From NCBI GenBank assembly GCA_964360785.1, contig CAYHXX010000005.1, positions 1-54,497 of the forward strand: a stretch of 54,497 nt of DNA, given 5' to 3'. The notes below the pieces were generated by a model. It was given only the letters and a program-made list of their open reading frames with translations, had not been told where the DNA came from and ran no database searches. Shown here in pieces: positions 8,890 to 35,477 of this stretch. This stretch comes from an uncultured Gammaproteobacteria bacterium. Lineage in GTDB: Bacteria; Patescibacteriota; Microgenomatia; Woykebacterales; RBG-16-39-9b. The number at the start of each line of letters is the position of its first letter. The first letter of the stretch is position 1. A program made the position numbers and the translations under genes.

Positions 8890-8954
8890 CACAAAATAAT
8901 AGCATAAACATTGCTTATCACAGAAAATATATCGTAATTGGCAACCCATAGGAA

Positions 8955-8983
8955 TTGACTTTTAGCTTCAAATATGTTATAGT
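8955..8983 (+). promoter_or_regulatory. Sigma70-type promoter of GC island A
   Basis: TTGACT (8955-8960), 17-nt spacer, TATAGT (8978-8983). It is preceded by ATAGGAATTGAC, the motif that also opens the cassettes at 23449 and 25334. Confidence 0.55.
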
Positions 8984-9034
8984 TGCACCCTTAGTCAGCA
9001 CTCGCTGGCTTTTTTGTTCGAAGGGAGAACAAAC

Positions 9035-9760
9035 GTGAGGTCATTGGTCAGTTCATACCTGGCCACCCCGCTAGTGATCATCACCATGATGCTCTTAGCG
9101 ACGGTGGGATCAAAGGCAGCCCCAGCTTATGGCTGGGAACTGTCAGCCGACTGTGTTGACGCCGACACGATCGTGGGAACAACCACGGTGCCGAATCCTC
9201 CCCAGACCTTCGAGGTCTTCGCCGAGGATCACGTTCCGGGTCACGGGTGGCAAGAAGTCGATGGCTCAAGGCACGAGTACACGTCCTACAAGGGACAAAT
9301 GGAATTTGTGCTCGATGTCAGCGGGACAAGGGATGGTGCCGATCTCTACATCGTCGGTCTCTCGACCGGTGAAAAGACAGACCCACCATTCCCGACCTGT
9401 CCTGAGGCGACTCCGACGGCGACATCAACGCCGACTCCAAATCCGACGGCAACGAACACGCCGGTGTCGCCAACGGCGACGAAGACTTCGGTACCCAACA
9501 AGCCGACGCGGACACCGACGCAGGTGGTTCCGACGGCAACGAGTACCAGGGTCATCGCGACCACCTCGACACAGCAGGTACCAACGTCAACGAAGACGTC
9601 GGTCATCCAGCTGCCGAGGACGGGTACTGGTGGTGACGAACCTAGTTACGGTAGGGGCAAAACGATCTTCGCGATCTCTACCTCAGGGTTTGTTGCCATG
9701 ATCGTGGTATATGTGTCTGGAGTGCTGGTCTACCTCCAGATGAAACATCCCCACGAGTAA
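9035..9760 (+). CDS. LPXTG-anchored surface protein, GC-rich (foreign composition)
   Basis: GTG 9035 lies 7 nt after AAGGGAG. Signal-like N-terminus LATPLVIITMMLLATVGSKAAPA, a ~100-aa domain and a Pro/Thr-rich linker. The C-terminus is LPRTG, then a hydrophobic segment, then a short tail, i.e. a sortase sorting signal. Long alternative-frame ORFs are typical of high-GC coding DNA. Confidence 0.7.
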   Translation: MRSLVSSYLATPLVIITMMLLATVGSKAAPAYGWELSADCVDADTIVGTTTVPNPPQTFEVFAEDHVPGHGWQEVDGSRHEYTSYKGQMEFVLDVSGTRDGADLYIVGLSTGEKTDPPFPTCPEATPTATSTPTPNPTATNTPVSPTATKTSVPNKPTRTPTQVVPTATSTRVIATTSTQQVPTSTKTSVIQLPRTGTGGDEPSYGRGKTIFAISTSGFVAMIVVYVSGVLVYLQMKHPHE

Positions 9761-9778
9761 CTTCAAGACCGCTTTTTT

Positions 9779-9830
9779 GGCCGCCAGAACTGGGTTCTAA
9801 CCCCAACTGGCGGCCACCTTCTTAATTTTT
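9779..9830 (+). terminator. Intrinsic terminator of island A
   Basis: GGCCGCCAG..GGGTTCTAACCC..CTGGCGGCC hairpin (9779-9815) followed by ACCTTCTTAATTTTT. Confidence 0.6.
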
Positions 9831-13830: not shown

Positions 13831-14703
13831 TTATAGTTCTTCCAACTTTACTGGTTCATCCAAACTGTTTTGAATGAGGTTTAGATATTTTTCTGTGGTA
13901 GCAAGTCGCTTGTGTCCAGCAAGTTTGCTGACCAAGACGAGAGAAGTTCCTGACATTAAGTGATGGGCAACAAAGGTGTGTCGAAGATCGTTTACCTTAG
14001 CATCCTTTATCCCAGCGAGACGGAAGTAGCGATCGATTGCAGTACGGATATTACGTACGAGTAGGGGACGCCCGGTCTTGGTGATGAATAATGTTTCTTC
14101 CTTTGCGCTTGGACGAGCCTCCAAGTAGCGCTTTAGAGCAGTCTCAGAAGCTTTGTTGAGTGGAACATTTCGATCTGGATAGCTTTCGCCAGCTGGAACA
14201 TGTAATTCTCCGCTTTTGCCGTTTTCGCCAAACTTAACATCGGAAAGCTTAAGTTTGGCCAACTCGCCAATACGAATTCCAGTTTGGAGGAGAAGTTCGA
14301 CAATTGCAGATATTCTAATGTCGTCTCTGGCTGCATCACGCAGTGCCCGATACTCCATCTTAGAAAGAATTCTTGGAGGTTTCATATCAAACTTGGGATG
14401 TTCGAGTAGGGAAGCTGGGTCGTCAGTGATAAATTCGTTTATTTTTAGAAATCTGAAGAAAGTTTTTGTAGAGTTTGTTTTTCGAGAGATGCTTTTAGGG
14501 GTGTAGCCCTCTTTAACAAGTTTGGCCATAAAAGCTTGGAGGTCGGCTGTTGCAATCTCATGGACTTGATGCTTCTTAAGGTTTTCTAGGAAAGCGGCTA
14601 GTTGTTCGATATCTTTTCCGTACGCCAAGACAGTCGCGCTACTGCGACCTTGAGACTTAAGATGATCAACAAATTTTGAGTGGGCTTCCTGTACTTTTAT
14701 CAT
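13831..14703 (-). CDS. Tyrosine site-specific recombinase (XerC/XerD-like)
   Basis: 290 aa. N-terminal SAM-like core-binding domain, then catalytic-domain motifs TGIRIGEL, DLRHTFVAHHL and LAGHKRLATTEKY (R..H-x-x-R..Y pattern). Confidence 0.85.
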   Translation of the reverse strand: MIKVQEAHSKFVDHLKSQGRSSATVLAYGKDIEQLAAFLENLKKHQVHEIATADLQAFMAKLVKEGYTPKSISRKTNSTKTFFRFLKINEFITDDPASLLEHPKFDMKPPRILSKMEYRALRDAARDDIRISAIVELLLQTGIRIGELAKLKLSDVKFGENGKSGELHVPAGESYPDRNVPLNKASETALKRYLEARPSAKEETLFITKTGRPLLVRNIRTAIDRYFRLAGIKDAKVNDLRHTFVAHHLMSGTSLVLVSKLAGHKRLATTEKYLNLIQNSLDEPVKLEEL

Positions 14704-14825
14704 ATAGTTGTGCTCTTTGTGCTAGTTTAACAGTTTCGAGATTTAGTGTCAAGAGACTATGGGATGTTTTATCGCCTTTGTTTCGGTAGCATATTAAAGC
14801 TAAGTGGGTATAGTATAATTTAACT

Positions 14826-16063: not shown

Positions 16064-16099
16064 GGCTGCTTAGCTCAGTGGCAGAGCACCGGACTTATA
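16064..16099 (+). pseudogene. tRNA 5'-half fragment (acceptor, D arm and anticodon loop only)
   Basis: GGCTGCTTAGCTCAGTGGCAGAGCACCGGACTTATA matches the 5' half of the tRNA at 16128 (GGCAGGGTAGCTCAGTGGCAGAGCAGCGGACTCATAA) at most positions. No 3' half follows; instead there is a hairpin ATGATGCTGGTGCATCAT. It is preceded by TGGTATAAT (16041-16049). Confidence 0.55.
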
Positions 16100-16127
16100 T
16101 GATGCTGGTGCATCATGCGTTTGTGAT

Positions 16128-16202
16128 GGCAGGGTAGCTCAGTGGCAGAGCAGCGGACTCATAAGCCGTTGGTCGTGGGTTCAAATCCCACCCCTGCCAC
16201 CA
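16128..16202 (+). tRNA. tRNA-Met (anticodon CAT), CCA encoded
   Basis: Acceptor GGCAGGG/CCCTGCC, D arm GCTC-AGTGGCA-GAGC, anticodon loop CTCATAA, T arm GTGGG-TTCAAAT-CCCAC, discriminator A plus CCA. Confidence 0.85.
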
Positions 16203-17621: not shown

Positions 17622-17650
17622 TTGACAAAATTTAATTAATTAGATATAGT
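17622..17650 (+). promoter_or_regulatory. Sigma70-type promoter upstream of GC island B
   Basis: TTGACA (17622-17627), 17-nt spacer, TATAGT (17645-17650). A 12-nt perfect palindrome CCAACTAGTTGG lies at 17695-17706. A second weaker candidate is TTTAAG-N17-TATAAA at about 17719-17747. Confidence 0.5.
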
Positions 17651-17774
17651 CGAGTCAATGATTCTTAACTTGAACCATTATTGGCACCGAAACACCAACT
17701 AGTTGGCGGTTTTGTCGTGTCTTGGTTTAAGTTCATTTTTCCCTACCATATAAAACAACAAAGTCATAACAAAG

Positions 17775-18157
17775 CTCGCTGACCGGGGCGTTGCTTTGCG
17801 ACGGGAATTTCCCGTTAGTACGCGAAGAAAGGAGCCGTGATGGAAAAGTCCTGGAACTACTCGCACGGCTAAACCGACGTAGCTAGGTGGTGGGTGAAGT
17901 TCAGCCGGTAGGATTTCACCCACCAGCCCAAAAGGAGATGACAATGTGTGACTGTATTGGTCCACGTTTTGATCCGTAGGTAACAGGGATGCTAGCTCCC
18001 TTACAGCCTAAATCTATAGGGAAGGAGGGGTCACATGAGCCACGTTTACGACGCGCGCTACGACAGCTACAGCTGGGACTAAGCTGACGGCTGGGTGAGG
18101 TTTCGTACGGGCGACTTGCATTCCAAGCGAGGTTCGCTTGTCGCCCGTACGGACCTC
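17775..18157 (+). ncRNA. GC-rich structured transcript of unknown class (island B), with embedded mini-ORFs
   Basis: No ORF of 60 aa or more on the + strand. Stable hairpins: ACGGGAATTTCCCGT; AGCCGTG..CACGGCT; GGTGGGTGAA..TTCACCCACC (10 bp); GTAACAGGGA..TCCCTTAC. The terminal hairpin is GAGGTTTCGTACGGGCGAC..GTCGCCCGTACGGACCTC (18097-18157). It lies between its own promoter and the separate trpS promoter (TTGTAG-N17-TATACT). Confidence 0.4.
18035..18082 (+). CDS. Candidate 15-codon mini-ORF (MSHVYDARYDSYSWD) inside island B
   Basis: ATG lies 5 nt after GGAAGGAGGGG. 13 of 15 sense codons end in G/C, like the other island ORFs. The stop lies 15 nt before the terminal hairpin. A second mini-ORF, MEKSWNYSHG (17840-17872), also follows AAAGGAG. 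Confidence 0.3.
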   Translation: MSHVYDARYDSYSWD

Positions 18158-18242
18158 ATTCTAACACCGTGCTGTTTGGATGAACAAACTTTGTTATACT
18201 TGTAGTCGATTACACGTCTTCGTATACTTTTAGATAATCACT

Positions 18243-21300: not shown

Positions 21301-23442
21301 ATGAGTAAATTAGTTCTAGTCGACGGTCATGCCCTCTTTCACAGAGCATTCCATGCTATGCCGCCATTAACCACCTCAAAAGGTGAGTTAGTTAACGCTG
21401 TTTTTGGTTTCACCAGCATGCTTTTGCGAGTACTAGCTGATATCAAACCAGAATACGCCATCGTCGCTTTCGATACCAAGGCTCCGACTTTTCGCCATAC
21501 AGAGTACACTGCCTACAAAGCCCATCGCATCGCCGCTCCAGAGGAAATGCATCAACAACTGCCTCGAATCAAAGAGGTTGTGAACAGTCTCAACATTCCT
21601 ATTTTCACTCTCGAAGGCTACGAGGCTGATGACGTCATTGGCACATTAGCTTCGCAAGCAGTTGATCTCGAGGTGGATATTGTCACAGGCGATCGCGACG
21701 CTCTGCAACTAGTTAATACTCATATCAAAACCTACATGCCTGGGAAGAGTCTCAGCGACATTATTATTTATGATGGAAAAAAGTTCGAGGAAAAGTATGG
21801 GTTTAAACCCAAACAACTGATCGACTACAAAGCGTTGGTTGGCGATCCCAGTGACAATATTCCCGGAGTGATGGGGATTGGGGAAGTATCAGCGACAAAA
21901 TTGATTCAGGAATATGGTAGTGTCGAGGAAATTTACAAAAACTTAGACAAAATTCCAGAAAAAGTGAGTAAAAAGCTGGCCGAAGGGGCAGAAAGCGCGG
22001 CCATGAGCAAGCGACTGGCGACGATTGATACCCAAGCACCGATCCAACTTGATCTAAATAAGTGTGTCTTATCTGATTATGATCACCAAAAAGCGATAAG
22101 TCTTTTTGAAGAACTTGAATTCAAAAGCTTGATACCTAGGTTGCCCGGTGTAAAGCTAACGACCAAAAAACAAATCGTTTCTGAAGATCAGGGAGAACTG
22201 TTTGGTAGCAACGAACAAATTGAACCTGTTAAACAGGAAACCACTGATCTCGATAAAGTTCTGCGGGAAATGGAAGATTACGGAGCCTTGGTTGACAAAG
22301 ATTATTTAGAGAAACTTGCTAGCGAGATCAATTCTGAGATTGAACAACTCGAAAAGGAAATTTATAAAAGCGTTGGCCATGAGTTCAACCTCAATTCACC
22401 GAAACAACTTTCAGGTGTACTTTTTGGAGAACTAGGTTTAACCCCTTTCAAGAAGGGAAAGGAACACGCTAGTACCGGGGAAGAAACTTTAACTGAGTTA
22501 CTTGGGGTCCATCCAGTGATTGAGTTGCTTCTCAAATACCGCGAACTTTTCAAACTCAAGTCTACCTATGTTGACGCCCTGCCACCACTTTTGGATAAAA
22601 ATAATCGAGTGCACACCAGCTATCATACCGATGCCACCAAAACTGGAAGACTATCTTCAACCAACCCCAATTTACAAAACATTCCGGTAAAAGGAGAATG
22701 GGGAGTAAAAGTCAGAGATGCGTTTATCGCACCAGAAGGTTCAAAACTTATTTCTGCAGATTACAATCAGATTGAACTGCGAGTAATGGCGCATCTCTCG
22801 CAGGATAAAAATTTAGTCGAAATATTTAAAAAAGGTGAGGACATTCACACCCGCACCGCGGCCGAAATACTTGATAAGAAACCAGAAGACATCACCAAAG
22901 ACGATCGTCGGATCGCCAAAATGGTCAATTTCGGTATCATGTATGGTATTTCTCCCTTTGGGCTTTCACGGCAACTAAAGATTGATCGGGATACGGCTAA
23001 ACAAATCATCGATAAATATTTTGAAGAATTCTCTGGAGTCAAAATTTGGTTGGAAAAAACTTTGTCCGATGCTTATGCCAAAGGTTACGTTGAAACTCTT
23101 GGTGGGTTTCGTCGTTATTTGATTGAGCTTAAGCAAGGTAACTATCGTGTTCGGGCGGCCGGGGAACGCCAAGCGATCAATGCTCCGGTACAAGGAACAG
23201 CTGCGGATATCATCAAGGCGGCAATGATCCGGATCAGTAAGCAGCTAGCAGAGAGCAGTAAGCAGACAAAGATGATACTGCAAGTCCATGATGAACTGGT
23301 TTTTGAAGTACCAGATGCCGAGGTCGAGAAGGTCAAACCAATAATCAAAGATCTGATGGAAAATACCTTCAAACTCTCCGTCCCAGTAGAAGTCGAGATA
23401 AAGATAGGGCAGAACTGGGGACAAATGAAAACCCTCCGCTAA
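21301..23442 (+). CDS. polA: DNA polymerase I (5' nuclease plus polymerase domains; no 3'-5' exonuclease domain)
   Basis: 713 aa. The 5'-nuclease motifs (LVDGHALFHRAFHA, GYEADDVIG, GDRDALQL) are followed after a ~35-aa linker by polymerase motifs (NLNSPKQL, RVHTSYH..TGRLSS, DYNQIELRV, QVHDEL). Confidence 0.92.
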   Translation: MSKLVLVDGHALFHRAFHAMPPLTTSKGELVNAVFGFTSMLLRVLADIKPEYAIVAFDTKAPTFRHTEYTAYKAHRIAAPEEMHQQLPRIKEVVNSLNIPIFTLEGYEADDVIGTLASQAVDLEVDIVTGDRDALQLVNTHIKTYMPGKSLSDIIIYDGKKFEEKYGFKPKQLIDYKALVGDPSDNIPGVMGIGEVSATKLIQEYGSVEEIYKNLDKIPEKVSKKLAEGAESAAMSKRLATIDTQAPIQLDLNKCVLSDYDHQKAISLFEELEFKSLIPRLPGVKLTTKKQIVSEDQGELFGSNEQIEPVKQETTDLDKVLREMEDYGALVDKDYLEKLASEINSEIEQLEKEIYKSVGHEFNLNSPKQLSGVLFGELGLTPFKKGKEHASTGEETLTELLGVHPVIELLLKYRELFKLKSTYVDALPPLLDKNNRVHTSYHTDATKTGRLSSTNPNLQNIPVKGEWGVKVRDAFIAPEGSKLISADYNQIELRVMAHLSQDKNLVEIFKKGEDIHTRTAAEILDKKPEDITKDDRRIAKMVNFGIMYGISPFGLSRQLKIDRDTAKQIIDKYFEEFSGVKIWLEKTLSDAYAKGYVETLGGFRRYLIELKQGNYRVRAAGERQAINAPVQGTAADIIKAAMIRISKQLAESSKQTKMILQVHDELVFEVPDAEVEKVKPIIKDLMENTFKLSVPVEVEIKIGQNWGQMKTLR

Positions 23443-23566
23443 ATTTTTATAGGAATTGACAATTTGAACGGAGCGAAAATTGCGAAGCGCGTATTAACGA
23501 TTCAAGATTAACTATTTTCACAGTGAAAACTTGACCAAAGAAAACGCTTAAGAGGACCTATAGCGC

Positions 23567-23594
23567 TTGACTTTCAACCTATTTTTGATATAGT
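23567..23594 (+). promoter_or_regulatory. Promoter of cassette C, first unit
   Basis: TTGACT (23567-23572), 16-nt spacer, TGaTATAGT extended -10 (23586-23594). The block is homologous to 25444-25472. Confidence 0.55.
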
Positions 23595-23655
23595 TATCCC
23601 CAACAAAGTACTTCGGACTCTGTTCGAGGACTTATTTGCACACAGGGAGGATCGA

Positions 23656-23856
23656 ATGAGCGCTGTTAAGCGGCCGCCGCTGCCCAACATCGACCCCCAG
23701 TTCGGGGCTGTTCAGTGCGCCTGCTGCGAGGGTTTCTTCCTCGAAGAAGCAACTAGGCTCGACAGGTACGTGAACGCCAAGTACCGCTGTGAGTTCTGCC
23801 GCCCCTCTGGACACGATGGGTCGCTCTGCAAACTCATTGCGGCCGATAGAGCATGA
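23656..23856 (+). CDS. Small Cys-rich protein (66 aa), GC-rich, unknown function
   Basis: ATG lies 5 nt after AGGGAGG. The Cys pattern is C-x-CC ... C-x2-C ... C (possible zinc-ribbon-like; inference). It is bracketed by a promoter and a terminator in the same orientation. Confidence 0.55.
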   Translation: MSAVKRPPLPNIDPQFGAVQCACCEGFFLEEATRLDRYVNAKYRCEFCRPSGHDGSLCKLIAADRA

Positions 23857-23879
23857 CCTTGTTGAGCAACGTGTGCAAA

Positions 23880-23940
23880 GGGACAGGTCTGGAATGTTTC
23901 TCCGGAAACATATTCGGATCTGTCCCATTTGTGTTTTTCT
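23880..23940 (+). terminator. Intrinsic terminator after the Cys-rich ORF
   Basis: GGGACAG..(ATGTTTC-TCCG-GAAACAT)..CTGTCCC hairpin (23880-23926) followed by ATTTGTGTTTTTCTTTT. Confidence 0.65.
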
Positions 23941-23998
23941 TTTCAACAAAAAAGACCTACATTGCAACGCAATGCGAGACGCAAAGAGTCTTATAGTA

Positions 23999-24027
23999 TT
24001 GACAAATCTAACTCAGTAGTGTATACT
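23999..24027 (+). promoter_or_regulatory. Promoter of cassette C, second unit
   Basis: TTGACA (23999-24004), 17-nt spacer, TATACT (24022-24027). Confidence 0.55.
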
Positions 24028-24092
24028 AACCGATATAGTTCTGATCGAATGCTTTTTAAGACAACAAACCTTGTTGTTTTTAGGGGTGGATT

Positions 24093-24410
24093 CGATCGTT
24101 AGTAGACCCAGATCGGACCCAACCAGCGGTTGAGACGAGGTTCTCAGCTGAGATCGTGAGGTGTATATGCAAACACCTGTCTACACCGGAGTACTCCAGG
24201 TACTCGTCGGGTGAGAAAGCGATCATGGAACCATGGGCGCAGGGAAGCGAGTGACGTTCAGTGGTGAGGTTCTCAGCGGAAGCTGTTAAACTTTACCCCG
24301 CACCGTCACCACCCGAGGTCATAGACCGCCCAACCCTCGGGGAGTAAGTTAGTAGACTACCAAGTCGAACACCCTCCCCGAGTCTCCACAAGCTAAGGTT
24401 TAATAAAAAC
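24093..24410 (+). ncRNA. GC-rich ORF-free transcript of unknown class (cassette C payload 2)
   Basis: About 320 nt with no ORF of 60 aa or more in any frame, between a consensus promoter and a hairpin/T-run terminator. Helices: AGGTGT..ACACCT, CCGAGG..CCTCGG, CTCGGGGAG..CTCCCCGAG (9 bp). Internal direct repeats: GTTAGTAGAC (24098, 24348) and GAGGTTCTCAGC (24137, 24266). Confidence 0.45.
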
Positions 24411-24424
24411 GTTAATTTATGAAG

Positions 24425-24462
24425 GGAAGCGACTTTCGCAAGAAGGTCGTTTTTCTTTTTCT
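24425..24462. terminator. Terminator block shared by cassette C (+) and the convergent CAP gene (-)
   Basis: AAGCGAC..GTCGTTT hairpin followed by TTTTTCTTTTTCT. The block is homologous to 26054-26088. Confidence 0.5.
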
Positions 24463-24465
24463 AAA

Positions 24466-25335
24466 CTATCTCAAAAATTTGTTATTTCTGTAGAGTTGAA
24501 GAGTGATGAAGCCAAATATAGCCAAATTTAATAAAACAATTGTCGTTGCTGCAATTCCTTGAACTAAAGTTATATCTGCTTTCTTTTCTTCTTTCGGTTC
24601 TATTCTTTTTGTACTGATTGTAGCTGATTTGGTTGCAGGTTGAGGTTTGGTGTTGGGTGTTGCTTCAATAGTCGTCACAGGTGTTTCCACAACAGGAGCT
24701 GGTTGTACAGCCACGGCAGGTGTAGATTTTTTGGGTGTAGCTGGGGCTGGTGCCGAGGGTGTTGGTGGTGTAGTTGCTTGCCCACATTGATTGGTCATTG
24801 TTGAAGCTGTGCCGTTGGCAAAATCTGTCACCCAATACCATTTACCGTTGTAACTAGCTCGGCCAATACCTATTCGGGTGTAAATAGAATTGAGCATATT
24901 GGTATTGTGCCCAGACGAGTTTTTCCAAGCGTCAAACGCAAAGCTTGCACCAGAGCCTTGTGTCGTATAGAAAATATTTTCTGCTCGTGAACCACTGATT
25001 CCAAAATCGGTTAGTCTTTGTGACATACCTCGACCGAGAGAATCAACGTGATCACTCGGGAAATAATTTTTGGCACCCATGTCAGCGGCAAACCAACAAG
25101 CAGCGTTGGTTAAACTTTGATCCTCAACTAGTGTTCCAGCCCCATTTTGCTGTCGATAAGAATTGATCAAACTCAAAAAACCAGTCGTGTCAGCAGCAAC
25201 CGGCTTGGCAAAAGGTCCTAAAAATATGGCAGTTAGGGAGCAGGCAGCAAAGAGGTGAAAAGAAGTAAAAAATCGCTGCACAATAAACAGTATCCAATAA
25301 ACGAAAAAGTTAGTCAAACTAAAAAAAGACCTCAT
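24466..25335 (-). CDS. Secreted/membrane-anchored CAP (SCP/PR-1-like) domain protein
   Basis: ATG 25335 (MRSFFSL). CAP motifs LINSYRQQNGAG, AENIFY and SSGHNTNML. A Pro/Thr/Ala-rich linker and a C-terminal TM helix follow. Composition is host-like and AT-rich. Confidence 0.7.
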   Translation of the reverse strand: MRSFFSLTNFFVYWILFIVQRFFTSFHLFAACSLTAIFLGPFAKPVAADTTGFLSLINSYRQQNGAGTLVEDQSLTNAACWFAADMGAKNYFPSDHVDSLGRGMSQRLTDFGISGSRAENIFYTTQGSGASFAFDAWKNSSGHNTNMLNSIYTRIGIGRASYNGKWYWVTDFANGTASTMTNQCGQATTPPTPSAPAPATPKKSTPAVAVQPAPVVETPVTTIEATPNTKPQPATKSATISTKRIEPKEEKKADITLVQGIAATTIVLLNLAIFGFITLQLYRNNKFLR

Positions 25336-25443
25336 AGGAATTGACAATTGTCTTCAATTGCGAAATGCGTCGTTAATTTCTGTTTTACTTTTATAGCTTG
25401 AGGACTTACATAAGGATCAAACAGGTTATTTAACCCATAGCAT

Positions 25444-25472
25444 TTGACTTTTCAACCTAATTATGTTAATCT
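25444..25472 (+). promoter_or_regulatory. Promoter of cassette D
   Basis: TTGACT (25444-25449), 17-nt spacer, TGtTAATCT extended -10 (25464-25472). The block is homologous to 23567-23594. Confidence 0.5.
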
Positions 25473-25584
25473 ACTCGGAATTCCTACCTCATTCCGAGGC
25501 GCGACACCGTCAAGTGTTGCGAAACTTCTCAAGCCTGGCCCAACGCCAGACAACTTGAGTGGTTAAGGGAAACAGGAGGTCCAC

Positions 25585-25923
25585 GTGGACTTCACCACCG
25601 CTCTCGCCGCTCAGCTCATCTCTGTGCGCAACCTCAAGTATGAGGATGCAGCAGAGGCGTACGCGGTGGGTACCGGGAAGGTAGGGAACGCTGTCACCGT
25701 GGCGGTTCAGCACATGACCCCAGCTGAGCTGGGAATCATTGCCGCCGCACGCCAGCCCTCCCGCCCACCACGCTACGGGGAAACCAGTGTCGCGGTTCGG
25801 TCGCCTATGCGCCTGAACTCCGACGCATCTGGGCTCAATATCCTGTTGGACTTGGCTGAAGCAGCCTTGACCGACCGGATCATTGACCTCGTGGGCCTGA
25901 AGGAACCCATCGCTGTGTCGTAA
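25585..25923 (+). CDS. Hypothetical 112-aa protein, GC-rich, unknown function
   Basis: GTG lies 6 nt after AGGAGG. About 70 percent G/C at third codon positions by hand count. It has a ~110-nt structured leader and a ~100-nt 3' UTR closed by AGTGGTGAGGGATCG..CGATCACCCCTCACT. Confidence 0.55.
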   Translation: MDFTTALAAQLISVRNLKYEDAAEAYAVGTGKVGNAVTVAVQHMTPAELGIIAAARQPSRPPRYGETSVAVRSPMRLNSDASGLNILLDLAEAALTDRIIDLVGLKEPIAVS

Positions 25924-26129
25924 GACGCAAGTGGTGAGGGATCGCTGACTCTGACAAAGTCACCGATTGGTTCCGTCGACATTTTGGTTCTCACGAACTA
26001 GAATGCTCGATCACCCCTCACTCAAGTTAATCTTTATTAGGTTAATTTAAGAGGAAAAGCGACCTGAAAGGGCCGTTTTTCTTTTTCTGCCTTGAAATCA
26101 GATATTTCCTGCAGTATTATGGAGCAACT

Positions 26130-26306
26130 ATGAGTAAAATTTCACTTTTGGATAGAATTGAAAAGATTGAAAGAGAAGTAGCCGAGGTTAAGAAAACCTT
26201 GAGCTATGAAGAAAAAGATGCCTTAAAGGCAGTTCGGGCTTATGAAAAAGCCAAGCGTGAAGGAAAATTAATTGAGCTTAAATCTGTTTCCCAACTTTTG
26301 GACTAG
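26130..26306 (+). CDS. Putative antitoxin (58 aa, below the ORF-track cutoff)
   Basis: ATG 26130, MSKISLLDRIEKIEREVAEVKK..., a coiled-coil-like small protein. Its TAG stop overlaps the GTG start of the RelE-like ORF by 1 nt. Confidence 0.5.
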   Translation: MSKISLLDRIEKIEREVAEVKKTLSYEEKDALKAVRAYEKAKREGKLIELKSVSQLLD

Positions 26307-26569
26307 TGGTTAAACATCTTTTTTACTACGTAACTTTTAAACGGGCCTTCAAAAAACTACAACCTTTTCAGAGAGCTGACTTCGAGAAGAAGCTAACCAT
26401 ATTTGTAAATAATCCTTTTGATTCCAGACTTAAAACTCATAAACTACAAGGAAAGTTAGATAGATACCACTCATTCTCGATTAACCATAGCGATAGAGTT
26501 GTGTTTGAGTTTATAGGTAACGAGACGGTTGGTTTAGTCGATATTGGTTCTCACAGTATTTACCGTTGA
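26306..26569 (+). CDS. RelE/ParE-superfamily toxin (YafQ/RelE-like)
   Basis: 87 aa. KLQGKLDRYHSFSINHSDRVVFEFIGNETVGLVDIGSHSIY fits the RelE/ParE core pattern. Confidence 0.65.
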   Translation: MVKHLFYYVTFKRAFKKLQPFQRADFEKKLTIFVNNPFDSRLKTHKLQGKLDRYHSFSINHSDRVVFEFIGNETVGLVDIGSHSIYR

Positions 26570-34296: not shown

Positions 34297-34339
34297 GTAA
34301 AAAAGGGGCAGGGCGGTGTGTGGTTGTCCACCGCCCTGC
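34297..34339 (-). terminator. Intrinsic terminator of island F operon
   Basis: On the - strand, GCAGGGCGGTG..CACCGCCCTGC hairpin followed by CCCTTTTTT. Confidence 0.65.
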
Positions 34340-34365
34340 GTGAAATGACTATTCCGTGCCTGGTC

Positions 34366-34554
34366 TCACTTGTCGCTTGGCACTGGGGTCGATCCGTTCT
34401 CCTGCTCGATGTAGAGCTGCGTCATGCCAGTCTCGTTACCAAACAGCTCGGCGGTTGTGACCACCACAACTGGTCGGACAACGAAGATCAGCGCGAACAA
34501 CGCGATCGAGCCGATTAGAAGTCTGCCCCAAAAGGTTGTTAGCAGTTGGCTCAC
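34366..34554 (-). CDS. Small membrane protein (62 aa), GC-rich, unknown function
   Basis: GTG start lies 5 nt after AGGAGG, and that RBS overlaps the upstream stop codon. One TM helix (LLIGSIALFALIFVV). Confidence 0.5.
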   Translation of the reverse strand: MSQLLTTFWGRLLIGSIALFALIFVVRPVVVVTTAELFGNETGMTQLYIEQENGSTPVPSDK

Positions 34555-34563
34555 CAGATCCTC

Positions 34564-35268
34564 CTAGAGCGTGTACTTCCGGCAGGAGTTGTGACCATAC
34601 ACGAGCCGGAAGGCCGGGCTGTCGGTGTCGAGCGTCGGTAACCACCCGCCGAGCTTGTACTCGAAGGTCGCCTGGAACACAGTCGTGCCTTTGTAAGGGA
34701 AACCATTGATTGTGCTCCAGATCTCGGGACCGGTGATCTTCTCGCTCTTCGTTGACCACCCGAGCCCAGCGTCGGTGTCGATGATGGGGGTGTAGGGCGG
34801 CCACAAAAGATTTCCGTAGTAGCTGTTGGTCCGGTAGGACTGCCAGCCCTTGAGCCTCCAATTGTTGCCCAGAAGCGTATTGAGCTCCTGTTTGCCGTAG
34901 CAGGTCCAACCGATCGTCGTCGATGTCGCCATCGCGCTAAGTTCAGCTGTTGCAGGAGCATTGCCGCACGCTTCGGAGATAAGGACGACCTCGTCCACCA
35001 GTTCGCCGTCTTCGACCTTCTCCTTGACCTTGCCGTCGGTGGGGTCGAGGAAGTGCCTCTTCACCTTGACGGCCTTCTTTTCTTTGTCAGCAGGGTGATC
35101 GCAGGTTGCGAGCACCTCGCCGTCGAAGTCAGCCGGCCTCACCTTTTCCTGCTTAGGCGGCTGCTTCGTGCCATCGGCCTGGGTGAACGACGTTCCTTGG
35201 ACGGTAATACCGATCGCAATGGCGAGCACTGCGAGCACGGTAGCGAAGATGATCGAGCGGAACCTCAT
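34564..35268 (-). CDS. Secreted or membrane-anchored Trp-rich protein (234 aa), GC-rich, unknown function
   Basis: ATG 35268 lies 5 nt after AAGGAGGG. Signal-like N-terminus MRFRSIIFATVLAVLAIAIGITVQG. Two long alternative-frame ORFs overlap it, as expected for high-GC coding DNA. Confidence 0.6.
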   Translation of the reverse strand: MRFRSIIFATVLAVLAIAIGITVQGTSFTQADGTKQPPKQEKVRPADFDGEVLATCDHPADKEKKAVKVKRHFLDPTDGKVKEKVEDGELVDEVVLISEACGNAPATAELSAMATSTTIGWTCYGKQELNTLLGNNWRLKGWQSYRTNSYYGNLLWPPYTPIIDTDAGLGWSTKSEKITGPEIWSTINGFPYKGTTVFQATFEYKLGGWLPTLDTDSPAFRLVYGHNSCRKYTL

Positions 35269-35449
35269 AGGTCCCTCCTTGTGTTTACACACCGTATCCT
35301 AAACGGTGGCTTCTTGCTTTGCCCTCGGTTTGCACTTGTTTTACCTTCCTTCCCGAAGCCCAAAGCAACGATCAATAGGCAAACACCTTTCTTATAGAAC
35401 TATTGCGGAGCGAAAGCCCCTAACCCTCGAGTTGGGTTTGTAGCAAAGA

Positions 35450-35477
35450 ATTATACAACTATAAGTCTAGGTGTCAA
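35450..35477 (-). promoter_or_regulatory. Promoter of island F operon
   Basis: On the - strand, TTGACA (35477-35472), 16-nt spacer, TATAAT (35455-35450). A ~175-nt partly GC-rich leader follows. Confidence 0.55.

Follow-up and report, generated by a model that had tools for sequence, protein, structure and literature searches.

A gene for a secreted CAP-domain protein is flanked by small GC-rich gene cassettes in the stretch of DNA analysed here (the window; 54,497 nucleotides (nt) of contig CAYHXX010000005.1), a chromosomal piece of a Saccharimonadales genome (candidate phyla radiation (CPR)/Patescibacteria) with ~43% GC from Hainich groundwater. CPR/Patescibacteria genomes are tiny and streamlined, and the ways in which new genes are acquired and tried out in them are little understood. 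The window carries the start of a 16S rRNA gene, tRNAs, ftsH, polA, two mutM genes and glycosyltransferase genes, and its nearest relatives in the genome collection match it at 80-86% identity in the polA protein. An earlier inspection of the letters alone (the sequence-only reading) had delimited two cassettes, C (23449-24462) and D (25334-26088), with the same ends around different payloads, and had suggested that cargo is exchanged between such ends. Our analysis of C, D and their relatives suggests that they are gene cassettes of a kind not described before, self-expressing and exchangeable.

Results

The CAP gene (24466-25284, minus strand; promoter at 25289-25317, minus strand) has native composition, with a GC content at third codon positions (GC3) of 0.32, and lies between C and D, both of which are read from the plus strand. 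The same arrangement around C, CAP and D was found in three independently assembled contigs and is therefore not an assembly artefact. Both loci described in the sequence-only reading are real, but C is itself composed of two transcription units, C1 and C2, so that its two cassettes become three transcription units. The C1 promoter (23557-23595) combines a CCTATAG-N3 element with the -35 hexamer TTGACT (23567-23572), a 16-nt spacer and a TG-extended -10 hexamer, TATAGT (23589-23594). It is followed by a 66-aa Cys-rich open reading frame (ORF; 23656-23856; C-x-CC ... C-x2-C; GC3 0.72) led by a GGGAGG Shine-Dalgarno sequence, and by an intrinsic terminator (23877-23944) with arms at 23877-23889 and 23917-23929 and a subsequent T-tract. 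C2 starts from a second promoter at 23990-24027 (-35 to -10: 23999-24027), in which CTTATAG-N2-TTGACA, a 17-nt spacer and TATACT reach 11/12 consensus positions. The stretch downstream, likewise described before as free of ORFs, contains none longer than 32 aa; its cargo is a predicted structured transcript of ~430 nt (24034-24462) with a single Shine-Dalgarno-led micro-ORF of 15 aa (24167-24214) and a predicted minimum free energy of -154.3 kcal/mol (z -5.4). C2 ends in the 3' module that it shares with D (24411-24462), including the terminator.

D is a single unit, and its description as a 112-aa ORF with long structured untranslated regions (UTRs) was borne out. Its promoter (25434-25472) comprises CCCATAG-N3, the -35 hexamer TTGACT (25444-25449), a 17-nt spacer and the TG-extended -10 hexamer TAATCT (25467-25472). 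The 109-nt 5'UTR (25476-25584), a conserved multi-helix leader with an AGGAGG Shine-Dalgarno sequence at its end, precedes the 112-aa ORF, which has a GTG start (25585-25923; GC3 0.72). The 3' frame (25912-26088) is built from a stop-codon GNRA hairpin, a three-way structured domain, a second hairpin (the GTTAATTTA block) and the terminator (26057-26088), the 3'UTR measuring ~165 nt with the terminator included. Transcription is predicted to start at ~23601 in C1, ~24034 in C2 and ~25479 in D, with predicted 3' ends at 24462 and 26088.

Homology between C and D begins and ends exactly at the borders given above and resides in three collinear blocks. The upstream block 1 of C (23449-23490, plus strand; ATAGGAATTGACAATT ... 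AATTGCGAAGCGCGT) and that of D (25334-25372, plus strand; ATAGGAATTGACAATTGTCTTCAATTGCGAAATGCGT) open with the 16-mer ATAGGAATTGACAATT, identical in 16/16 positions at 23449 and 25334, and continue to align over AATTGCGAA..GCGT; a third copy, with two mismatches, opens a further unit, island A, at 8948, as had been noticed. About 100 nt downstream of block 1 lie the near-identical promoter blocks, CC(T/C)ATAGC..TTGACT(T)TTCAACCTA with the TG-extended -10. The closing block, GTTAATTTA.GA..AAGCGAC..CGTTTTTCTTTTTCT, shows 79% identity over 52 nt (24411-24462 versus 26041-26088; blastn), and within the window its terminator tract CGTTTTTCTTTTTCT occurs only at the ends of C and D. The partial degradation seen before in the D hairpin corresponds to an A.C mismatch in the terminator stem that is missing in relatives. 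Measured by Smith-Waterman local alignment scores against 300 shuffles, similarity was far above chance for the 5' ends (z=7.5) and the 3' ends (z=15.3), with 0/300 shuffles as high in either case; the payloads, with gaps allowed, scored at z=-0.4 (209/300 shuffles) and the ORF regions at z=0.4. The ends of C and D are therefore homologous and their payloads are not, even when gapped, which speaks against a simple recent duplication. Short strings shared by the 3' parts, such as AGTGGTGAGG, do exist as reported, but do not exceed chance over the whole payloads, and the alignment of C2 with the D 3'UTR is marginal (z 2.0, 18/300 shuffles).

Nor are the blocks a generic promoter and terminator consensus. 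The motif ATAG-N3-TTGAC occurs five times in 54.5 kb, against 0.31 copies expected and 0/100 shuffles reaching five, and all five copies head GC-rich islands (one at A, two at C and two at D). Among 19 TTGAC-N17-19-TAnnnT sites in the window, an upstream ATAG is found only at A, C1, C2, D and an Xer-like recombinase gene. Block 1 itself has no significant predicted single-stranded DNA (ssDNA) hairpins, and in D it contains two CAATTG palindromes spaced one helical turn apart.

Taken by themselves, these signals could belong to a static regulon, in which C and D are co-regulated paralogous units, the 5' block is an operator, promoter and terminator are kept for expression control, and the cargo differs through old, unrelated gene gain and fast divergence, with no ongoing exchange. 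The coincidence of the conserved ends with promoter and terminator, the operator-like palindrome pair in D, the CCCATAG element that also heads the conserved Xer-like gene, and the lack of recombination machinery nearby all fit such an account. Near-identical terminators and 3' hairpins, however, are not required by a regulon, and the cargo and the relatives examined below present it with further difficulties. On balance, we consider a static regulon unlikely.

The cargo ORFs have a GC3 of 0.67-0.79, compared to 0.30-0.50 in the native genes for which it was computed; this excess at third codon positions indicates real coding sequences (CDSs) of foreign or special composition, and foreign GC3 in all cargo is something that a static regulon does not explain. 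Homologues are exceedingly rare. The D protein family has six members among 5.8 billion proteins and is shared by the window and the related loci L022, L025 and L031 at 30-64% identity, the protein of island E (see below) falls into six clusters among 1.84 billion, and for the 66-aa ORF of C1 no homologue was found. Searches of Pfam, NCBIfam, PHROGs and PADLOC returned no function for the cargo, and the D protein, for which AlphaFold models five helices at a predicted local distance difference test (pLDDT) score of 74, matches nothing in the PDB by fold or sequence. Phage and plasmid DNA searches gave no match. Pattern scans of viral contigs yielded match numbers that we judged compatible with chance, no expectation having been computed, and the viral loci had no extended similarity to the cassettes. 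A type I toxin was dropped as a reading of the cargo, which is not a hydrophobic peptide; diversity-generating retroelements and retrons were dropped as well, there being no reverse transcriptase gene among the neighbours of C and D and no template/variable-region repeat pair that we noticed.

A GC3 so far above that of the genome might also result from independent recent horizontal gene transfer (HGT) from high-GC donors, or from a chimeric assembly, the similarity of the ends being coincidental. But the ends are significantly homologous and conserved across genomes, the three independently assembled contigs agree, phage and plasmid matches are lacking, and well-sampled high-GC donors are unlikely because the cargo is almost without homologues anywhere. 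This explanation is largely refuted, and we regard it as very improbable.

The UTRs of D have a conserved RNA structure. Across five sequences, the D 3'UTR folds into 69 pairs in seven helices, with 96% of cells paired; 12 pairs carry two-sided changes, whereas column shuffles gave 5.0+/-1.6 such pairs and slid controls 0-2, and the D 3'UTR is thus a true structured RNA. The 5'UTR, compared across three sequences, forms a four-helix leader of 42 pairs, four of them compensatory. In D-type units the stop codon sits inside the GUAA (GNRA) tetraloop of a hairpin, CGUC-GUAA-GACG (25912-25927; 422-437 in L022), in which L022 shows a compensatory U-A to A-U change, and the last ~seven codons (EEPIASS-like) are kept even between unrelated CDSs. 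Rfam 15, at gathering and at permissive thresholds, produced no match for the C2 RNA or the D UTRs, with nothing better than E=3 in 23400-26150; in the window it recognises rRNA and tRNAs only. A covariance model of the D 3'UTR (R1) recovered D-type units only, plus one weak match to the 3'UTR of another cassette (18 bits, E 0.04). This model misses C2, and the short strings found in both C2 and the D 3'UTR therefore do not indicate that the two share an RNA domain. Separately, a 10-nt segment of the D 5'UTR, AACTTGAGTG (25552-25561), is perfectly complementary to CACTCAAGTT in the 3'UTR (26019-26028), and by inspection 7-9 bp of this complementarity are kept in L002 and L025; pairing between the two UTRs of D is possible.

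Related genomes gave genuine support to the idea of cargo turnover. The D 3' end is 88% identical in L002 and 85% in L001, and the D promoter and 5'UTR are 84% identical in L002 (for the 5'UTR alone, 84% to L002 and 78% to L025 c2), compared to DNA identities of 74-75% for polA and 72-73% for CAP; the noncoding ends of D are therefore better conserved than essential coding DNA. At the orthologous site in L002, beside the CAP gene and divergent from it, a D-like promoter, 5'UTR and 3'UTR enclose an unrelated CDS (P0004), which has no BLASTP match to the window D protein at E<=10. The D unit of L022, by contrast, has diverged uniformly, with 79% identity across CDS and UTR. Since L022 diverges uniformly whereas the L002 UTRs are closer and yet surround an unrelated CDS, the L002 unit is best read as a CDS replacement, with one putative breakpoint at the start codon and the other ~23 nt short of the stop. 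A regulon leaves unexplained both this unrelated CDS in an 84-88% identical orthologous frame, while L022 diverges uniformly, and the positions found in L001. There, a D-type frame holds yet another CDS (P0005) plus an extra ORF; its 3' frame is convergent with CAP, on the side of CAP opposite to that of D in the window, and the position of the window's D is occupied by a Zn-ribbon unit with a block-1-like sequence. Directly upstream of the D-type cassette in L001/L032, an rve-family insertion sequence (IS) transposase gene (L001 13770-14651, minus strand) replaces any preceding 5' block. C is missing from L002, where the polA and CAP genes overlap, and L003 and L004 have neither cassettes nor a CAP gene. 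Some of the public metagenome-assembled genomes with these loci are labelled 'uncultured Gammaproteobacteria' (L001, L005, L006) or 'Nanoarchaeia archaeon' (L004), probably as taxonomic mislabels.

In a second lineage, cassettes are arrayed. A 146-kb contig (L023/L025) contains four head-to-tail cassettes with different cargo, one of them D-type with D-like UTRs, and further cassettes elsewhere; the copies of this array in L025-L030 are all identical. The promoter and terminator modules of D are 83-85% identical to those of L025 cassettes with other cargo. The array cassettes open with ACACTAGACGACC...CCCATAGTAyTTGAC and close with TCGTTTTTCTTTGGCTAAA...CAAAAAGTTCTAAC, and both the left motif ACACTAGACGACC (five copies versus 0.02 expected) and the right motif AAAAAGTTCTAAC (five versus 0.09) are strongly over-represented. 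Neighbouring cassettes meet at the junction AAAAAGTTCTAAC|GTCGTACACTAGACGACC, and at solitary and terminal cassettes homology ends exactly after GTTCTAAC. One cassette, Y, has GTTCTAAC and GTTCTAAG on its two sides, with a GTTCTAA(C/G) direct repeat seen only there. Arrays with such exact junctions are again unexplained by a regulon. Directly upstream of the array, between two CACCCTTRGGGTGTA palindromes, lies the gene of a Y1 HUH transposase, present once in the 20 kb of L025 examined. The protein matches Pfam Y1_Tnp, and its best NCBIfam match is the REP-associated tyrosine transposase family (RAYT; NF047646) at 52.9 bits, under the cutoff of 80.

This neighbourhood suggests another explanation, namely that a Y1 HUH transposase (of IS200/IS605 or RAYT type), acting in trans on single-stranded ends, mobilises the cassettes, which would themselves be non-autonomous elements. 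The ends would then serve first of all as substrates for transposition, with promoter and terminator hairpin as additional contents, and arrays would form because the target GTTCTAAC is restored at the right end of every element. The palindrome-flanked Y1 gene adjoining the four-cassette array, the exact junctions, the ends of homology at GTTCTAAC, the flanks of cassette Y, the over-represented end motifs and the location of 5/6 window units on one strand are all consistent with this idea. Against it, the association of Y1 gene and array is a single case, the protein stays under the RAYT cutoff (52.9 versus 80 bits), and a search of the window and L001-L005, which cover only part of each genome, yielded no Y1 gene. 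Furthermore, the cassettes of the window lineage lack the L025 end motifs, the predicted ssDNA hairpins at left ends are weak (z -0.1 to -1.8), the right end having the terminator hairpin, and Y1 transposition alone would leave a CDS replacement inside an intact frame unexplained. We therefore find this explanation doubtful.

Three further GC-rich islands in the window are built alike and would belong to the C1/C2/D family more loosely. Island A (8948-9830, plus strand) has the promoter head CCCATAGGAATTGACT-17-TATAGT, a GC-rich ORF (GC3 0.67) and its own terminator; by sequence, the ORF encodes a secreted, PT-rich surface protein with an LPRTG motif. Its terminator loop (9780-9830) contains GTTCTAAC, the 8-mer at the core of the L025 junctions, which may be coincidence. 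Island E (34300-35477, minus strand) comprises a AATAGTTGACA promoter, a ~170-nt 5'UTR, an ORF for a secreted protein of 234 aa (GC3 0.79), a small transmembrane ORF and a strong terminator, and the E homologue found in a second AT-rich genome likewise forms a discrete, GC-rich unit of two genes. Island F (17622-18165, plus strand; GC 0.55), upstream of a Trp/Tyr-tRNA synthetase-type gene, has the consensus promoter TTGACA-17-TATAGT, three strongly Shine-Dalgarno-led micro-ORFs (MEKSWNYSHG, MCDCIGPRFDP and MSHVYDARYDSYSWD) and a long terminator hairpin, and had no Rfam match.

The Xer-like tyrosine recombinase gene (13831-14703, minus strand) carries the same promoter head as the cassettes, CCCATAG-N4-TTGACA (promoter ~14720-14765). 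This motif recurs at the gene in L001, L004 and L005; the stretches of L004 and L005 that were examined contain no cassettes. Directly 3' of cassette D, a pair of genes for 58-aa and 87-aa proteins (26130-26569, plus strand) is probably a type II toxin-antitoxin module, the 87-aa protein having a weak match to ParE/YafQ/HigB-type toxins (E ~1e-4, under Pfam cutoffs); the pair is missing at the equivalent position in L001. Finally, the 5' half of tRNA-Met is duplicated (16064-16126, plus strand; 80% over 46 nt) directly upstream of the intact tRNA-Met (16128-16202), with a hairpin after the copy; this may be the scar of an integration at a tRNA gene.

Discussion

With slightly better than even confidence, we read the cassettes as moron-like autonomous expression units whose conserved frame allows cargo turnover by recombination. 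C1, C2 and D, for which the anatomy, the homologous and unit-specific ends, the foreign orphan cargo and, in D, the RNA structure of the UTRs are directly supported, would represent one family of autonomous accessory transcription units in Saccharimonadales chromosomes. In the layout common to the family, a sigma-70-type promoter close to consensus, in which the -10 is TG-extended and the characteristic CC(C/T)ATAG lies just upstream of the -35, would be followed by a structured 5'UTR and a strong Shine-Dalgarno sequence, then by either one or two small GC3-rich orphan ORFs or an RNA, and finally by a 3'UTR that is likewise structured and the conserved terminator, a hairpin plus TTTTTCTTTTT. 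What C and D have in common at their ends would be the expression frame of the family, kept by selection for expression and RNA function. As the frame stays the same around different cargo, it would double as homology arms, and recombination within it could replace the cargo and move units between slots. Replacement of a CDS at an orthologous site, variable occupancy with swapped positions, and a tandem array elsewhere are likewise directly supported, and it is to this extent that the proposal of cargo exchange in the sequence-only reading stands; a role of the conserved blocks as sites of recombination instead of expression signals, or the action of any recombinase on them, would be conjectural. 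The exchange would proceed by homologous recombination, plausibly after DNA uptake. Expression of the units is likely to be high and constitutive, and their cargo may comprise small regulatory-type proteins as well as secreted and surface proteins, with a role perhaps in interactions with hosts or phages.

Several observations weigh against this interpretation. Terminal inverted repeats were searched for at the homology boundaries of C and D and not found, and inspection of the C and D flanks revealed no target-site duplications or direct repeats. In agreement with the sequence-only reading, no integrase, attC-like core or transposase adjoins C or D, nor does any other recombinase gene. We saw no high-identity pair of empty and filled sites, no circular junction and no population variants. 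Since the conserved ends are mostly expression signals, their conservation could be purely regulatory. The UTR comparisons use few sequences (five for the 3'UTR, three for the 5'UTR), the cassettes of the window lineage share promoter and terminator modules but not end motifs with the L025 lineage, and this interpretation does not account for where the GC-rich cargo comes from. A 15-nt inverted match between 23581-23595 and 24464-24478 was judged coincidental; it falls in the last codons of the CAP gene, whose C-terminal FLR is common to L002.

Among known systems, the closest likeness is to morons, defined as autonomous promoter-gene-terminator units of atypical composition between conserved genes (definition quoted in PMC4378225). 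Like phage morons, the units described here usually have a single coding region with its own promoter and intrinsic terminator, a composition unlike that of their neighbours (GC3 0.67-0.79 versus 0.30-0.50), and a presence/absence pattern between conserved genes of related genomes, with an acquisition mechanism that is unknown in both cases. Morons, however, reside in phages or prophages, whereas these units lie in the chromosome of a CPR cell, where phage genes are missing from the neighbourhood and searches of phage DNA and PHROGs gave no match. The units also share a conserved frame of upstream block, promoter head, structured UTRs and terminator module, inside which the CDS has been replaced, and they can stand in tandem arrays. 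A survey of HGT in groundwater Patescibacteria (PMC12455944) describes no such units. Replacement of alleles by recombination in flanking homology is a similar process, with sharp breakpoints just inside the CDS ends and flanks more conserved than the surrounding genome, but here the flanks are only ~150-190 nt of the unit's own promoter, UTR and terminator and are common to different loci. Classical insertion sequences and miniature inverted-repeat elements, with their terminal inverted repeats and target-site duplications, find no counterpart at C and D.

Integron cassettes are generally promoterless, and their attC sites are imperfect inverted repeats with R''/R' cores, GTTRRRY. The cassettes described here resemble them in being compact, in their mostly orphan and variable cargo, in their repeated boundaries and in a conserved platform with swapped content, and the L025 array has one composite junction per cassette. 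However, they are scattered as well as arrayed, no IntI adjoins them, and each has its own near-consensus promoter and terminator, while integron cassettes rely on the promoter Pc. By inspection, no GTTRRRY/RYYYAAC pair was seen in the 3' modules, and the L025 core GTTCTAAC fits neither consensus. The sole tyrosine recombinase of the window (13831-14703), ~9 kb away, scores 65 bits as an integron integrase, against a cutoff of 265, and 168 bits as XerC. The L025 array adjoins a gene for a Y1 HUH transposase rather than for a tyrosine recombinase, and it is reminiscent of REP/REPIN-RAYT and IS200/IS605 systems in its palindrome-flanked Y1 gene beside repeated elements of defined ends, the lack of terminal inverted repeats and the orientation bias. 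REPINs, however, are noncoding elements of ~100 nt (PMC3116915, PMC5581495), whereas the units described here are gene units of 0.6-1 kb that are predicted to be expressed; their end hairpins are unconvincing, no Y1 gene was seen in the window, and the L025 protein remains under the RAYT family cutoff.

The two comparisons can be combined in the improbable but far-reaching case that Saccharimonadales possess an undescribed platform of standardised, self-expressing units, each with promoter, structured UTRs and terminator, within which unrelated orphan CDSs or RNAs are exchanged, and that a domesticated RAYT-like Y1 HUH transposase inserts these units at specific sites, either alone or as tandem arrays. 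If true, ultra-small symbiotic bacteria would have a counterpart of the integron that works on single-stranded DNA, and a link to Y1 transposases would extend the known role of HUH enzymes to gene-cassette capture. As moron-like units whose expression frame allows recombination, the reading that we prefer, the cassettes would supply new RNA elements, among them the 5' and 3' UTR structures of D, the stop-codon GNRA hairpin and the C2 RNA, and would offer the young field of Saccharibacteria genetics a set of promoters and UTRs ready for use as tools. Plug-in expression units of this kind would give CPR episymbionts a concrete way of turning over their accessory genes.

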